A stretch of 37,570 nucleotides of DNA from Planctomycetota bacterium (GTDB lineage: Bacteria; Planctomycetota; B15-G4; SIAN01): assembly GCA_031409275.1 (NCBI GenBank), contig JANNXA010000046.1, positions 1 to 37,570 of the forward strand. Direction: 5' to 3'. A program made the translations under genes and the position numbers. This document shows, piece by piece, positions 1,233 to 37,570 of this stretch; position 1 is the stretch's first letter, and every line of letters begins with the position of its first letter. Below the pieces are notes generated by a model that was given only the letters and a program-made list of their open reading frames with translations, was not told the origin of the DNA and did no database searches.

Positions 1233-4200
1233 CGCACGTCGCGTCCACCGGTCGTCGCGGCCGGCTCGATCGCGCTGCCATCCTCGACGTGGAACGTGGT
1301 GCTGTCGCTGCTCTCGCCCGCTTCGATCGTGACGAGGTAGTCGCCGGGCTTCAGCCGTTGGTCGCGCATGGACGGCATTCCGGGCGCGTCGACGTCGAGC
1401 GCCAGGTTCCAGCGCACGACCTGCAGGCCGGCGCTGCCCGGGCCCGTGAGGCGCGCGACGATGGCGCCGCTGACGTTCTTCACGGCGAGCGCGACGTTGG
1501 CCTCGCTGCCGTGGCGGCGCCACCACCAGAACTCGACGCCGTCGCGCGGGTTCTGGCCGTGGAAGCGCGGCGCCGCATAGGAGTTCGAGCCGGGCAGTCG
1601 CGGGGCGAGCGTCACCGTGCGCGGCTCGAGCAGTTCGAGCTCGGAGGCCACCACGTCCTTGTTCAGCTGCTCGAGCGGCGTGATGTCGGCGATCCAGAGG
1701 CCGCGGCCGTGCGTGGCGGCGACGAGCTCCCGCTCGCGCGGATGGACGACGAGGTCGAAGACGGGAACGGTGGGGAGCGCCCCGTCGAGCGCGACGAAGG
1801 TGTCGCCGTCGTCGATCGAGTAGTGGCAGCCGACCGAGCTGCCGGCGAAGAGGATGCCGCGGCGCCGCGGCGACTGCGCCAGCGCGTGGAGGTTCTGAGC
1901 CGGCAGCCCGGTGCCGATGCGCGTGAAGGTGCGGCCGAAGTCGCGGCTGCGATAGAGCCACGGCGCGCAGTCGTCGCTGCGGCGACCATCCAGGGCGACG
2001 AAGAGCGTCTCCTTGTCGTGGCTCGAGAAGAGCAGATCGGCGACGTAGCGCGGGCCGGGGAGGTCGGGCAGCCGCTCGGCGAGGCTCTCCCAGGTGCGAC
2101 CGCCGTCGCGCGTCAGCCACAGCGCGCCGTCGTCGGTGCCCACCGCGACGACATCGGCGAAGCGCGGCGATTCGGCGATCGCAGTCGCGCTGCCGCGCGC
2201 CGTGCGCGACAGCTCGGGGCTCACGCTGGTCCAGTCATCGCCGCGATTCACCGACTTGAAGAGCTGCTCGCCGCCGCACCAGAGCGTGCGCGAGTTGTGC
2301 GGCGACAGCAGGAACGGCGTGTTCCAGCAGAAGCGCTTGCCCGGCGGGCGGATGTCCGCGCGCGTGCCGCTGTCGAGGTCGAAGCGGGCGAGCGCGCCGT
2401 TCTGGCTTTCGGAGTAGACGAGGGTCGCATCGTCGGGGTCGATGGCGCACTGGAAACCGTCGCCGCCGTTCGCGTAGATCCAGGCGTCGCCGGGAATGCC
2501 TTGTCGGCGTCGAGTCGCGCTCGGTCCGACCCAGCTGCCGTTGTCCTGCAGGCCGCCCGCCACCGTGTAGGGGCGGTCCATGCCGACCGCGACGCTGTAG
2601 AACTGGCCGATCGGCAGCTTCTCGTTCATCTCCCAATGTCTGCCCGCGTCGAAGCTCGCGTAGAGGCCGCCATCGTTGCCGAGCAGCAGATGGTCGCCGT
2701 CGTTCGGATCGATCCACAGCGCGTGGTGGTCGGGGTGGGCGTCGCTGGCGCCTTGCGCGTCGAAGGTGATGCCGCCATCACGCGACACGTGCAGCGAGAT
2801 GCCCAGGACCCACAGTCGCTTGGCGTCGCGCGGGTCGACGCGCACCTGGCTGTAATAGAAGGGCCGCGGATTGAGGCTGTTGATGCGCTGCCACGTCGCG
2901 CCGCGATCCTCGCTGCGGAACAAGCCGCCCGTCTCGAAACCGCGTGCGCCTTGCCGCTCCTGCGCGTTCGCCGACTGTCCGCCTTGCTCGCCGCCGAAGT
3001 CGCCGCTGGTGCCGGGCCGACGCCCGAACTTGACCTTGAAGGTCTGCTCGTTGCCTTCGCGGCGCACGACGACGTCGACCTCCTCGCCCGCCGTGCGCAC
3101 GTCGAGCAGCGTGCGCAGCTCCTCGAACGTGTGGATCGCGGAGTCGCCGATGCGCAGGAGCGTGTCGCCCTTGGCGATGCCCGCCGCTGCCGCCGGCCCG
3201 CCCTCGATCGATTCGCTCAGCACGTAGCCATCGGCGCTGCTTTCGCCGCGCACGCCGAGCCACGCCGGCCCCGAATCGTCCGGCGACTGGCCGGGCGCGG
3301 TCTTGCCCGTCAGCTCGCTCTGCACGGTGGCGAAGACGATGCGCGAATCGGCGGCGAAGAGGTCGAACCCGACGCGGCCGAGCGCCACCGTCGGCAGTCC
3401 GGCGCTCGAGCGTGTGAAGGTGGCGCCACCATCGATCGAACGCCAGATCGCCCCGCCCGGCCCGAACTGCACGGCCGGGTCGCCGTCGTCGAACTCGTCG
3501 CGTCGCCGCTGCCACGTCGCCGCGTGGACGATCGCCGGCTCCTGCGGATCGATGGCGACGTCGATGCAACCGGTCGCCGCGTCGACGAAGAGGACACGCT
3601 GCCAGGTGGCGCCGCCGTCCTGCGTGCGGTAGAGGCCGCGCTCGTCGTTGTCGCCCCACGTGTGGCCGACGGCGGCGACGAAGAGGAGATTCGGGTCGGT
3701 GGGGTGGATCGCGATGCGGCCGATGGCGCGGCTGTCGGCGAGCCCCATGAACGTGAAGCTCTTGCCGCCATCGATCGACTTGAAGACGCCAGCGCCGGGG
3801 ATCACCGAGTTGCGCGGATTGGCTTCGCCGGTGCCGAGCCACACGATCGCCGAATCGGAGGGCGCGATGGCGACATCGCCGATCGAGGCGGTCGGCCCGC
3901 TCTCGAAGACGGCGGCGAAGTGGGTGCCGGCGTTCTCGGTCTTGAAGAGCCCGCCGCTCGCGGTGGCGACGAAGAAGGTGCTGCTGCGCCGTGGGTCGAC
4001 GGCGAGGTCGGTGATGCGGCCGCCCATGTTCACGGGCCCAAGGGCACGCCACGAGAGGTCGTCGAAGAGCGCGCTGCTCCAGGGGGCTTCGATGCCGCCG
4101 GCGGGCGTTGGCGCGACGGCGGGTGCCGGCGCGGGCGTTGGCTCGGGCGTCGGCGCGGAGGCCTCCTGCAAGGTCGCCGCCGACGCGGTCGCGCAGCAGC

Positions 4201-9047: not shown

Positions 9048-10775
9048 TCACGGCGCTTCCTCGATCCGGTGGTAGCGGCCCGTTTGCAGTTCCTTCACGA
9101 TTTCCCGGCCGCCGCTCGGCCAGCGGAGTTCGACGGTCACGGGACCGGCGTCCTCGCCAAGCCCAACCAGGACGCGGCGATCGTGCGAACAGAGGTAGCT
9201 CTCGCCGCAGCGGACCGATCGACGCAGCGTCTTTCCGGCCGTCTGGATGAGCACTTCCGCGCCGAGCGGGTCGCGCGGCGAACGCTTGCCCACCAGCTCG
9301 AGGCCGATCCAGGAGCGGACGTTTCCCCGTTCGTTCCTCAGCAGATGGGCGGCCTCGCCGTTGTTGGTGAACAGCAAGTCGAGGTCGCCGTCGTCGTCGT
9401 AGTCGGCGGCGGCGAGTCCGCGCCCGACGTGCCGCTCGCCGAAGTAGCCGCCCGCGGCTTCGACGCTCGCCAAGGTGAAGCGGCCGCGGCCGTCGTTCCA
9501 GTACAGGTGGGCCGGCTGGCGGTAGGTGATGCCCGGCAGCAGCTTCTCGGCGTTGTCGAGCACGTGGCCGTTGGCGATCGCGACGTCGAGGTCGGTGTCG
9601 CCATCGAAGTCGGCGAAGAGCGTCCCGAAGCCGACCCATGGCAGCGAGGGGCCGCCCAATCCGCTCGCGTAGCTGCGATCGCGATAGTGCTCGCCGTCGC
9701 GCAGCCAGAGCGTGTTGTACTCGTTGCTCAAGTTGCAGGTGAAGAGGTCGAGGTCGAGGTCGCCGTCGACGTCGGCGAATGCGGCGCCCATGCACGATTG
9801 CGTGCGCCCCTCGCCGTTGAAGTCGACGCCAAGCTGCGATGCGACGTCGGTGAAGCGCAGCGCCCCATCGTTGCGCCACAGGAAGTTCACGTCGGAGTCG
9901 TTCGCGACGAAGAGGTCGAGGTCGCCGTCATCGTCGAAGTCGCCGACCGCGACGCCGAGTCCCTTGCCTTTCTTGCCCGCCATTCCGGCCGTCGCCGACA
10001 CGTCGGTGAAGGTGCCGTCGCCATCGTTGCGGAACAGGGTGTCGTCGATCCCGGCGTAGATGTCGGGATGGCAGTAGCTCGCGTAGTCAGGCCCGCGCGC
10101 GAGCTCGCCGCACGTCTTGCCGTCGCCGACGCGGAAGTCGACGTAACCGACCACGTAGAGGTCGAGGTCGCCGTCCCCGTCGAAGTCGGCCCACGCGCAC
10201 GAGCTGTGGTAGCGGTCGCCATCGGCGACCCGCGCGATCTCGGTGACGTCGGTGAGACGGCCGCCGTCGTTGCGCCAAAGCACGTTCTTGCCGTAGTTGG
10301 TCACGTAGAGGTCGGTGTCGCCGTCGTTGTCGTAGTCGGCTGGCGCCGCCGCCATGCCATGGGCCGACTCGGCGCGCAGCGCCGCGGGCGTCGCGTCGAC
10401 GAAGCGCCCGCCCTCGTTGCGCAGCAGCGTGTCGTGCAGCGGCCGCGTCGGCGTGAAGCCGGGCAGCGCCGCGCCTTGCACCAGGAAGAGGTCGAGGTGC
10501 CCGTCGCCGTCGAAGTCGAGCCACGCCGCTCCGGAGCCGTTGGTCTCGACGAACCAACGCTTGCCGCTCGCGCCGTTCTCGTGGACGAAGTCGAGCCCCG
10601 ACTCCACGGTGACGTCGCGGAAGCAGGCGGTCACCGTTGCGGAAGCGGCGTCTCGCGGCGGTGCGCCGGCCGGTGCCGAGCGATCGGCAGGTTCGTCGCC
10701 GCAGCGAGCCAGCAGCGCCAACACCGGCAGCAGTCGCGCCAGCGGCCACGTCGAGCGCGAAACGTGGCACCTCAT
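9048..10775 (-). CDS. CRTAC1/ASPIC-UnbV family FG-GAP repeat protein, copy 2 (575 aa)
   Basis: Signal/lipobox-like LLPVLALLARC; FG-GAP DxDGDGDLDL repeats; SYCHPD motif shared with copy 1; C-terminal RDPLGAEV...GLG...RWPSG. ATGA overlap at 10772-10775. Confidence 0.9.
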   Translation of the reverse strand: MRCHVSRSTWPLARLLPVLALLARCGDEPADRSAPAGAPPRDAASATVTACFRDVTVESGLDFVHENGASGKRWFVETNGSGAAWLDFDGDGHLDLFLVQGAALPGFTPTRPLHDTLLRNEGGRFVDATPAALRAESAHGMAAAPADYDNDGDTDLYVTNYGKNVLWRNDGGRLTDVTEIARVADGDRYHSSCAWADFDGDGDLDLYVVGYVDFRVGDGKTCGELARGPDYASYCHPDIYAGIDDTLFRNDGDGTFTDVSATAGMAGKKGKGLGVAVGDFDDDGDLDLFVANDSDVNFLWRNDGALRFTDVASQLGVDFNGEGRTQSCMGAAFADVDGDLDLDLFTCNLSNEYNTLWLRDGEHYRDRSYASGLGGPSLPWVGFGTLFADFDGDTDLDVAIANGHVLDNAEKLLPGITYRQPAHLYWNDGRGRFTLASVEAAGGYFGERHVGRGLAAADYDDDGDLDLLFTNNGEAAHLLRNERGNVRSWIGLELVGKRSPRDPLGAEVLIQTAGKTLRRSVRCGESYLCSHDRRVLVGLGEDAGPVTVELRWPSGGREIVKELQTGRYHRIEEAP

Positions 10776-33031: not shown

Positions 33032-34705
<1,674 letters not shown>

Positions 34706-35000
34706 GCGGCGTCGGGGTCGGTACGAGCGGTCTCAGCGGTCTCAGGCGCTCTCGCGCAACGCCGGCACGCGTCGGCGCGCGCCGCGCTTGCCACCGAGGG
34801 GCAGCAGTCGCGCGACGAAGCGGGTCGCTCTGGCCGCGCGTGGGTGCCACCGGTGCCGATGCCGTCGGCTCCGATCCAAAACGGTTCAAGGTGCGGCGTT
34901 GACGTGGATGGCATCGACGTGGGCGGTGCCTTGGTGGCACGCCATGTCGCGGTGACGATTCGCCGAAGATGACCGGCGGGCGGGCTCGCGCAGGCTCCGG

Positions 35001-35546
35001 TCAGGCGCAGCCGTACCGCGACTTTCGCCAGCGGCTGACTCGTTTGCGGAGAACGGTTGCCGAGACTCCGCGTTCGGCGGCCAACTCGTTCCAGCTCCGG
35101 CCTTCGCAGTGAAGCTCGAGCAGCCGCGCCGGCTCGTTCATGTCGATCGCGGTGTTTGTTTCGGGTGCCTCGACCTCAGCCTTCGGCAGCGGCTCGGCGG
35201 GCGCCGCTAGCCAGCGCAGGTCGGGCAGCGTCTCGATCGTCGCACGTTCGAGCCGCGCTCTCCGTTTCGTCGCAAGCAACTCGAATCGGAGGAAGCGGCA
35301 GACCAGCGGGACGGAGAGGCGCGCCCACTCGATGCCGGCGCTGCTCGCGCGCAGCAGCGCTCCGACGACGAGATCTTCGCTCGACACGAGCGCGTAGTTT
35401 ACGTCGCGGCTGATCCTTCGTGCGATTGCGTGGCAGCGACGCCACTCGAGGTCCGTGAAGCCGGAGTGTGGCTCGGCGGCCGGCGGATCGACGGGAGGAC
35501 GGGAGGACGGGAGGACGGGGCCGCGGGACTCGGTTGTTGAATGCAC
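35001..35546 (-). CDS. divergent stand-alone ECF-type sigma factor / sigma-70 region 4 HTH protein (181 aa)
   Basis: SEDLVVGALLRA resembles region 2.2 (AEDLVQEALLRA); LLELHCEGRSWNELAAERGVSATVLRKRVSRWR resembles the region 4 HTH. GGAGGG 7 nt before GTG 35546. Confidence 0.65.
   Translation of the reverse strand: MHSTTESRGPVLPSSRPPVDPPAAEPHSGFTDLEWRRCHAIARRISRDVNYALVSSEDLVVGALLRASSAGIEWARLSVPLVCRFLRFELLATKRRARLERATIETLPDLRWLAAPAEPLPKAEVEAPETNTAIDMNEPARLLELHCEGRSWNELAAERGVSATVLRKRVSRWRKSRYGCA
35490..35519. repeat. 8-nt tandem repeat (GACGGGAG)x3 plus GACGGG inside the 5' coding region of the sigma gene
   Basis: Directly readable: units at 35490, 35498 and 35506 and a partial unit at 35514. Confidence 0.9.
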
Positions 35547-35706
35547 ATCTCATCCCTCCACTTGTCGAGCTCGGCGGAATGGCGAGATTTCCTAGCGGAG
35601 AAGATGCGCCGCGCAACTTTTTGAAAAGCGGTCACAAACGCGAGGACCAAGGCACTTAAGGCGCAGCGGAATCGCGATGGTGCGGTCGCCGCTGAGGAGT
35701 GAGATC

Positions 35707-36063
35707 GTGTTCCAAGCACAACTGCTCATGTCGGGGACGGACGTCTACAGCCCGTGGTTCAAGCGTGGCGGGGATGGCTTGCGCGCGACGCTCGACTTCG
35801 TCGCCCAGTCGGGAGGCAACGTTCTGACCGTGCGTGCTTTCACGAAGAACGAGGCGGACACCGGCGATGGAACGGACGCAATCTCGGCCGTGACGATCAC
35901 GGCAAGCACGACGCCTGGTCGGTTCACCAGCGAATGGCTGTCGACGGTCAGCACCGGGCTGAAGGAACTCGTGCGGTACAAGTTCTCGCTCGCGAACACG
36001 GCCAGCGGCTGGGCGCTGTTCCGGATGCTTCCGCCGGTCTGGTTCGACGCGGTCAAGATCTGA
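35707..36063 (+). CDS. uncharacterised small beta-rich protein, paralog A (118 aa)
   Basis: GAGGAG (35694-35699) before GTG 35707; MFQAQLLMSGTDVYSPWFKRGGDGLRATLDF...FTKNEADTGDG...ELVRYKF...GWALFRMLPPVWFDA. Its homology to the next ORF supports coding status. Confidence 0.85.
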   Translation: MFQAQLLMSGTDVYSPWFKRGGDGLRATLDFVAQSGGNVLTVRAFTKNEADTGDGTDAISAVTITASTTPGRFTSEWLSTVSTGLKELVRYKFSLANTASGWALFRMLPPVWFDAVKI

Positions 36064-36082
36064 CCCGCCTGGAGTACGAGCC

Positions 36083-36520
36083 ATGAAGGGCGATTCGTGC
36101 GATTGTCGCTGCCGCGGCTGCCAGGGCACGCTGAAGGGCGTCCAGCTCTTCAGCGGGACGAGGGTGCTCGGGCCGTGGATGCGGCGTCGCGGGGACTACG
36201 TCCGCGCCACCGCGGACGTCACGAACAAGAAGGGCGACGTCAATCTTGTGGTCCGAATGTTCACGAAGAACAGCGAGAACCGCGGCGACGGAATTGACGT
36301 CGACTCAACTCGCACGATCACCACCGAGATCACCGGCCGGAAACTTCAGGAGTGGGGCACCACTGGTGTCGGGATCCGAGAGCTCGTCCGCTACGAGTAC
36401 GAGTGCAACGTGGTGACAACACCTGGATGGGTGAGGTTCCGGATGCTCGGCGGGTGCTGGTTTGAAGCGGCAGGGTTGGGCGGAGGCGGAGTGGTGCTGC
36501 CACCGCCGGAGGGGGAGTGA
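36083..36520 (+). CDS. uncharacterised small beta-rich protein, paralog B, with Cys-rich N-terminus (145 aa)
   Basis: GGAG RBS at 36071; MKGDSCDCRCRGC then GPWMRRRGDYVRATAD...FTKNSENRGDG...ELVRYEY...GWVRFRMLGGCWFEA. Confidence 0.85.
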   Translation: MKGDSCDCRCRGCQGTLKGVQLFSGTRVLGPWMRRRGDYVRATADVTNKKGDVNLVVRMFTKNSENRGDGIDVDSTRTITTEITGRKLQEWGTTGVGIRELVRYEYECNVVTTPGWVRFRMLGGCWFEAAGLGGGGVVLPPPEGE

Positions 36521-36529
36521 GGGAAAACC

Positions 36530-37570
36530 ATGGAAAGAATGCCACCTGGCTGCTTGAACGATTCATGCATCCACGGCGCAATGCCCGTCGTCGTAACTCC
36601 AGGGACGGAGGAGATGTTCGGTTCGCATCGCAACCGCTTGGAGTTGCTTGCCGATCTCCAGAACTCAGATCGTCTACATGCAATCGCTGACGACGTGAAA
36701 CGCAACCCGGCGGGTGGCGATGACTACCAAAAAGGGCTTTCTGTTCCGACGACATCAAAGGGCGAGCCGCTGAAGAGGGCGTCGTCGGAAGGATCTGACT
36801 CGAGCATCCACAACAAAGAGGTTGATGGGCGTAAGAAGTCGAAGCCTCTAGTTGGATGTGAAGCGACGATCGTCAAGTGCCTATGGATCGACGCCGACTC
36901 GTCGACCAAGAGTGGCTGTACAGATATCAACATCGAAACACTCCACGCAGATCTCAATGCGGCAGCGCTCAAGTGGAAGGATCTGACATGTCCGTGTGTC
37001 GACGAGGATGGTAATCCTGTAGAAGACAAGGACCGGAATAAGGGATGCACGGTGCATGTAGAGTTTGAAATCAATCGCGACAAGAAACCGCCGACGGGAT
37101 GCGCCTCAGTTGTATTGCATTGCGGCGGAAGTACTCCCGACCCGAACGCGCCAAGCCCTGGGGGTGGCGTCACGAGGGTCATGGACATGCATCTGGATGT
37201 GGCGATCTCTGATTCAACATTGGCGCATGAGCTTGGTCATTCCCTTGGCATTCAGGGTGAGAACTACACCTTCGTTGTTGAAGGAGACAGGCTCAAGTCG
37301 ATCGCGAGCATCGGGTTCGAAGGGACGATGATGGGGGATCCTGGAGCGCGAGAACAGAAGCCACCAACTGCGGAAGAATCGTGCGTCATCATTCATACAC
37401 TGAACCAGGGTGGCCCCAGCAAGTCCGGGAACAGCAAGCAGAAGTTCTGCGCAGAAGAGATGTGCTGCCCGACGACGCAATTGATGTCGTTATCCAATGC
37501 GGTGCTGCGACTGCCGATCCCCGCCATTCCTGGCTCGCAACGAGAAGAGGGTGGTGACGGCGGCGGTGGC
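36530..37570 (+). CDS. Cys-rich zincin (HExxH) metallopeptidase-like protein, 3'-truncated by the window (at least 347 aa); absent from the ORF track
   Basis: Hand translation from ATG 36530 (GAGGG upstream, 9 nt after the paralog B stop) has no stop to the window end. TLAHELGHSLGI with the first His at 37226; candidate Met-turn GTMMG at 37322-37336; 14 Cys. Confidence 0.8.
   Translation, partial: MERMPPGCLNDSCIHGAMPVVVTPGTEEMFGSHRNRLELLADLQNSDRLHAIADDVKRNPAGGDDYQKGLSVPTTSKGEPLKRASSEGSDSSIHNKEVDGRKKSKPLVGCEATIVKCLWIDADSSTKSGCTDINIETLHADLNAAALKWKDLTCPCVDEDGNPVEDKDRNKGCTVHVEFEINRDKKPPTGCASVVLHCGGSTPDPNAPSPGGGVTRVMDMHLDVAISDSTLAHELGHSLGIQGENYTFVVEGDRLKSIASIGFEGTMMGDPGAREQKPPTAEESCVIIHTLNQGGPSKSGNSKQKFCAEEMCCPTTQLMSLSNAVLRLPIPAIPGSQREEGGDGGGG

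Follow-up and report, generated by a model that had tools for sequence, protein, structure and literature searches.

Paralogous predicted jelly-roll proteins head a mobile, cargo-swapping cassette of Planctomycetota, a likely polymorphic toxin system

PirA of the PirAB pair is a small stand-alone jelly-roll protein that serves as the partner of a separate toxin chain. Its structures (PDB 7fcn, 3x0t) are similar in size to the two proteins considered here, but the identity is 6-7%, the partner is one and fixed, and there is no immunity gene. XepA and YomS, described in PMC6834076 (PDB 6i56, 6i5o), share the jelly-roll fold and offer a precedent in lysis cassettes, but they are prophage proteins that form pentamers, are not known to have a variable cargo and show no sequence similarity to our family. 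Ena endospore appendage subunits (DUF3992) are likewise tandem jelly-roll paralogs, some copies of which bear a Cys-rich N-terminal extension; according to 10.1101/2020.08.21.260141, the fibres use Cys-containing N-terminal connectors that are received by a core Cys. The phage cement protein Bbp16 (PF21190, PDB 3j4u) has a similar size and strand layout and a weak profile and language-model resemblance. Polymorphic toxin systems, as defined in section 29 of PMC12419801, resemble the locus in pairing a conserved N-terminal part with a C-terminal tip that varies, in the immunity-like gene linked downstream and in repeated or decayed cassettes on islands. In the T7SSb of Firmicutes, the small accessory genes that co-occur with a polymorphic toxin encode WXG100-like proteins, and 10.1101/2022.07.06.499029 describes how Lap1 and Lap2 bind the N-terminal domain of the LXG toxin; a leader-binding role is proposed here for jelly-rolls that are, in contrast, all-beta and encoded in a genome without a WXG100 match. 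The system of PMC9424270, with the signal peptides and S8 peptidase described there, is a different one.

The window, i.e. the whole analysed stretch of 37,570 nt (contig JANNXA010000046.1 of the Planctomycetota assembly GCA_031409275.1), carries near its end the features collected in Table 1.

Table 1. Features at the 3' end of the window
Feature	Position	Strand	Description
21-bp direct repeat	34692..34712	+	spans the 3' end and stop codon of an EttA-like ABC-F gene
sigma-like ORF	35001..35546	-	181 aa; divergent; degenerate, ECF-sigma-like; profile match E 3e-7
ORF A	35707..36063	+	118 aa; predicted jelly-roll; zero Cys; without signal peptide
ORF B	36083..36520	+	145 aa; paralog of A; Cys-rich N-terminal extension
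cargo ORF	36530..37570	+	at least 347 aa, runs off the contig end; 14 Cys; HEXXH at residues 233-237; without signal peptide

An earlier note, made from the sequence alone, had recognized A and B as a tandem pair of paralogs from six motif pairs aligned by eye. All six are indeed present and colinear in the two translations, BLASTP aligns them with 52/110 identical residues (47%, E 1e-29), and the Smith-Waterman score is 228, whereas 2000 shuffles average 28 and reach at most 56. The duplication is old, since at the DNA level the two genes resemble each other in patches only, the best of which covers 47 nt at 79%. Inspection of the sequence places the start of A at a GTG codon with GAGGAG upstream, and 50/54 aligned homologs have a start Met matching that of ORF A (column M1 is at least 90% conserved). 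The earlier note did not mention that B possesses, besides its Cys-rich extension, a Gly/Pro tail; its layout corresponds to the subtype "last copy with Cys leader" known from other loci.

The same note's statement that the family is unnamed holds as far as tested against Pfam, PHROG, NCBIfam, PADLOC and PDB sequences. Neither A nor B gives a Pfam match over the cut-off or any NCBIfam, PADLOC or PHROG match; when 55 family members were compared with PHROG and Pfam, no family matched more than one member and all E-values were 0.006 or worse; and the family profile retrieved zero PDB sequences up to E 10. Those 55 proteins (A included) came from a search with ORF A among 73 candidates, while the profile matches 777 representatives of 50%-identity clusters. 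The family occurs in 6/42 genomes of the class, in 0/7 other genomes of the window's own taxonomic family and in 32/401 genomes of the phylum, the last count being a lower bound because 11 candidates were scored per genome. Titled records are almost all from Planctomycetota, with one labelled Nitrospira, and there were zero matches in the viral contigs and phage records searched. The mean Cys content is 0.5%, with no conserved Cys column in the alignment. On a quick tree built from few columns, from which the window's A and B rows were left out, the last copies with a Cys extension cluster (7 rows; 2 changes versus 6.8 shuffled; 0/500), while "first" copies and plain "last" copies form no clades. 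A weak search found no longer fused proteins among 7990 scored candidates, although fusions exist: in G009 (L145, 9154-10752, minus strand) a 430-aa domain without annotation carries a jelly-roll fused to its N-terminus, and in P0157 one chain holds two family domains.

The window's own genome (G000) contains a second cassette on C49 (L001 6945-10145), in which a tyrosine-recombinase-like ORF adjoins an A/B pair (C49:8229-8951) and the 391-aa cargo has a Cys leader and a C-terminus that is helical and hydrophobic; 206 nt of the recombinase region are repeated at 10557-10762. Elsewhere (L134 of G157, 3179-3908, minus strand) two tandem small beta-rich paralogs, 36% identical and with a weak F5/8 type C match, sit after a family gene and before Cys/Pro-rich ORFs. 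Their profile similarity to the jelly-roll family is not significant; they are possibly a sister system.

The AlphaFold model is all-beta with a pLDDT of 91. The best structural match is PirA (Z 9.8, rmsd 2.6, 96 residues aligned), accompanied by XepA (Z 8.8), a GOLD domain (8.8), carbohydrate-binding modules (CBMs), Ena2A (8.2, rmsd 4.2) and, at 7.2, the cement chain of a Bordetella phage; the identities are 4-15% throughout and the scores largely tied. YomS matches at Z 7.5. The PirA match therefore shows the fold only, its Z being tied with those of XepA and GOLD domains, and the confidently modelled fold of A and B is a generic jelly-roll. Of the earlier suggestion of a jelly-roll or discoidin-like sandwich, the former half is upheld by this model and its matches at Z 7-9.8, while nothing singles out discoidin; it is not among the listed structural matches, an absence that does not in itself speak against it. 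Language-model (Atlas) features are similar, at 0.93-0.96, to phage protein clusters, in one of which 21% of members are Bbp16. A complex prediction for two A and one B (score 0.00, mark 0.32, controls not folded) counts neither way.

What the earlier note had missed is the main point, namely that A and B form the conserved front end of a cassette in which the cargo can be swapped and which includes a likely immunity gene. Across Planctomycetota, 1-4 jelly-roll copies are followed by a cargo lacking a signal and then usually by a gene for an exported or membrane protein or a lipoprotein, the whole lying on islands. A total of 153 cassette hits were reduced to 101 by imperfect dereplication. 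In the 58 cassettes flanked by 600 nt or more on each side, a single copy was counted in 21, two copies in 24, three in 11 and four in 2. Of the 61 dereplicated cassettes whose downstream sequence extends for 1.5 kb or more, 53 have a same-strand ORF of at least 200 aa within 450 nt behind the last copy. The cargo set comprises 47 proteins (median length 388 aa), the window's ORF having been added and seven rows dropped (L074, radical SAM; L085, transposase; L079, duplicate; L144 and L145, of a different or fused type; L072, a mis-called ORF; L014, a fragment). At least 4 Cys residues occur within the first 120 aa of 39/47 cargos, versus 28/161 control ORFs picked in the same way behind other genes, and a clustered Cys motif in 26/47 versus 5/161. 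An N-terminal hydrophobic segment was found in 0/47 cargos, in 31/46 of the genes downstream of them (15/46 lack it) and in 77/245 genome controls; a Tat motif was likewise seen in 0/47 cargos. Since the loci are related, these layout counts and the tip counts given below are not independent. Some loci break the pattern: at L074 (956-2999) the place of the usual cargo behind the pair is taken by a radical SAM gene together with a short ORF rich in Cys and Pro, L085 has a transposase, and L144 and L145 encode beta-rich proteins. Repeated and decayed cassettes are common on the islands. Transposases, integrases, kinases and sigma-like ORFs recur as neighbours, and no transporter, ATPase or capsid gene recurs within 6 kb of family genes.

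The cargos fall into 36 C-terminal clusters among the 47. At L038, A and B are 76% and 74% identical to the window's pair and the cargo is unrelated; in G021, three B copies that are 95-96% identical each precede a different, unrelated cargo. A variable C-terminal tip behind a conserved part is the arrangement of polymorphic toxin systems. The cargos of one clade (f28) have a leader in common, whose profile has matches in 11/29 genomes: 11/16 carriers, with none in 5 carrier genomes, and 0/13 genomes without the jelly-roll. Each of the 13 matches, including 7 that were not part of the seed, is found shortly behind a jelly-roll gene, in one case at a distance of 2.7 kb. The scanned cargos differ from those of polymorphic toxin systems in that no signal peptide, RHS, PAAR, WXG/LXG, DUF4157 or MuF part was detected; the trafficking hallmark would here be the stand-alone jelly-roll family with the Cys-rich leader, neither of which stands among the hallmarks in the relevant passages of PMC3482391 and PMC12419801.

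Most cargos have no Pfam or NCBIfam match, so the label "toxin" rests on the layout and a minority of hydrolase tips. DUF3750, presented in PMC10318531 as a Ser-type papain-like family with predicted activity, is found in 7 cargos (5 over the cut-off), DUF6973 in 1, and HEXXH in 3, the window's included. Motifs resembling Ntox44, as listed in PMC3482391, were seen by eye in L140 and L044; the Ntox44 Pfam model was blank in 5 genomes, and the same search rang in no control either. An unannotated Cys-containing tip is common to cassettes L129, L132 and L143, and at L038 (2669-4825) and L042 (7380-9467) S46 peptidase genes lie directly behind two cargos whose C-termini, compared by eye, look alike. 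The window's cargo is predicted to be a zinc metallopeptidase and is a candidate toxin: besides HEXXH, its domain has Atlas features at 0.94 to M10/matrixin-like clusters. The match to Pfam Reprolysin_3 reaches E 0.12 only, Gly occupies the position of the metzincins' third His, a homolog search gave no match and a single-sequence fold had a pLDDT of 33.

The divergent ORF upstream of A is likely the regulator of the cassette, judging from its match to a profile built from nine sigma-like ORFs near other family loci. One of those seeds matches Pfam Sigma70_r4_2 at E 4e-5, below the cut-off, and the window's ORF has zero Pfam matches; a sequence scan found neither a sigma-70 promoter nor a terminator. 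GC3 in the window is 0.94 for the ABC-F gene, 0.84 for A, 0.82 for B and 0.63 for the cargo. The 21-bp repeat, which recurs once in the genome (G000:C16:259173, minus strand, about 1.1 kb from the end of C16), is likely the left attachment site of an island. In the same-genus genomes G004 and G001, genes that in G000 lie on C16 come immediately after the ABC-F gene, and G003 and G002 have other inserts at its 3' end. That 3' end (gene at 33035-34705; L153-L156) is an insertion hotspot, 3/5 genomes of the genus carrying different inserts.

The last island gene on C16 encodes a 313-aa lipoprotein-like FGE-sulfatase protein (FGE domain, E 5e-34), and the ORF before it stops 4 nt ahead of its start. 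FGE proteins are described in 10.1101/2021.05.21.445229 as a T6SS immunity family, and the lipoprotein is, across an assembly gap, the putative immunity gene of the window's cargo. Among the proteins encoded downstream of cargos in general, 0/43 match a named immunity family, and two are S46 peptidases. In contigs of the runs X1, X2 and X4, all from one study and two of them (X1 and X2) perhaps the source, a 97-nt piece joins 34884 to 37392, so that the sigma-like gene, A, B and the greater part of the cargo are left out; its depth is close to that of the full form. The short side of the junction piece is 26 letters only, and the depth of 37430-37570 is about 2.4 times. This junction may come from a strain with a deletion or from an orphan copy of tip plus immunity gene.

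We consider it likely, as the best reading of the locus, that the cassette is an undescribed polymorphic toxin system in which jelly-rolls bind and deliver the toxin; no description of such a system was found in the open-access literature searched. A and B would accordingly be paralogous predicted jelly-rolls at the head of a mobile, cargo-swapping cassette, and they probably bind the cargo, itself a probable toxin, and bring it to the target bacteria. This does not account for heavily Cys-rich cargos without a signal peptide, and the window's cargo is cut and without a homolog, its link to the FGE gene crossing an assembly gap. The note's idea that the pair acts as particle, spike or chaperone subunits survives in its last part, as a chaperone or carrier role is the better fit for a pair at the head of such a cassette. 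The idea of a phage particle or spike finds no support, the family being absent from the viral contigs and phage records searched and capsid or tail genes not recurring beside it.

No known injection machine tracks with the cassette. VipB occurs in 5/34 carriers and the eCIS tube in 6/34, together 9/34, which leaves 25/34 carrier genomes (all counts from incomplete genomes) without a T6SS sheath or eCIS tube marker. The window's genome, 93% complete, has no Hcp, sheath, Phage_capsid or WXG100 match (the WXG100 search rang in 3 control genomes), and its searches for the eCIS tube, eCIS_core and Bbp16 were also blank, as they were in every control genome. A T6SS or eCIS effector module should have its machine in the carrier genome, and most carriers show no marker of one. 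Nor, on the features compared, does the cassette match the T7SSb, Ena or phage cement systems, and it has neither the sequence family of PirA nor the PirB partner: no PirB-like Pfam match was found in the cargos scanned. A further reading, which we regard as unlikely, is self-contained delivery, in which jelly-rolls descended from phage capsid cement proteins would build their own carrier particle and load any cargo with a Cys leader, with no known secretion or injection machine.

The tandem arrangement of paralogs of about 115 aa and the match to the Ena2A fibre (Z 8.2, rmsd 4.2) would also suit polymerization of the jelly-rolls, either as a fibre of the Ena kind or as a small particle, with Cys N-terminal connectors on B and the cargo tethering the variable tip by disulfides, and the Cys-leader copies of B type are indeed placed last and cluster on the tree. 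However, an acceptor Cys in the core is needed, yet A has none and the family mean is 0.5%; the connector is absent from most copies, DUF3992 matches 0/55 members, the host is non-sporulating, cargo and immunity-like genes follow here, and the latter are left unexplained, so that we hold this reading to be improbable. Descent from captured capsid cement of the Bbp16 type, fixing a toxin to helper-phage virions in the spirit of MuF toxins, draws on the phage clusters among the Atlas features, on the Bordetella cement chain and on a profile comparison with 5 Bbp16 proteins that gave E 0.016 in a plausible register. Against it, hhalign assigns a probability of only 2.9%, PF21190 matches 1/55 members at E 0.067, the similarity is not significant, viral contigs and phage records hold no match, and true Bbp16 genes of the phylum adjoin major capsid genes, whereas no capsid gene recurs near the jelly-roll family and a search of G000 with the Phage_capsid model gave no match; this reading is very improbable. 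The many CBMs and GOLD domains among the structural neighbours, the unannotated state of most tips and the presence of peptidases or HEAT proteins among the downstream genes could also be read as signs that the cassette is no weapon and encodes variable enzymes or adhesins that act harmlessly outside the cell, aided by helpers that bind carbohydrate. The helpers and cargos lack signal peptides, however, the tips turn over extremely behind near-identical pairs, cassettes are repeated and decayed on islands, and a dedicated exported gene follows most cargos, all of which makes harmless enzymes or adhesins an improbable account too.

In the toxin-carrier reading, the sigma-like gene would switch the operon on, and A and B, once folded in the cytoplasm, would attach to the Cys-rich leader of the cargo. 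We infer that the complex would leave by a non-Sec route, most likely by lysis-type release, which is favoured because no known injection machine tracks with the cassette. At the target, the jelly-rolls would then be the subunit that binds the envelope, in the manner of PirA or a carbohydrate-binding module; the tip of the cargo, in the window a predicted zinc metallopeptidase, would attack that envelope, and the lipoprotein encoded behind the cargo would protect kin.

A large family without a name acquires a probable function in this way, and a candidate toxin system is defined for uncultured lineages of Planctomycetota. Through the family, candidate toxin and immunity domains that lack annotation can be collected by the dozen. 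If jelly-rolls and a Cys-rich leader do suffice for loading and delivery, they would constitute a route separate from T5SS, T6SS, T7SS and eCIS.
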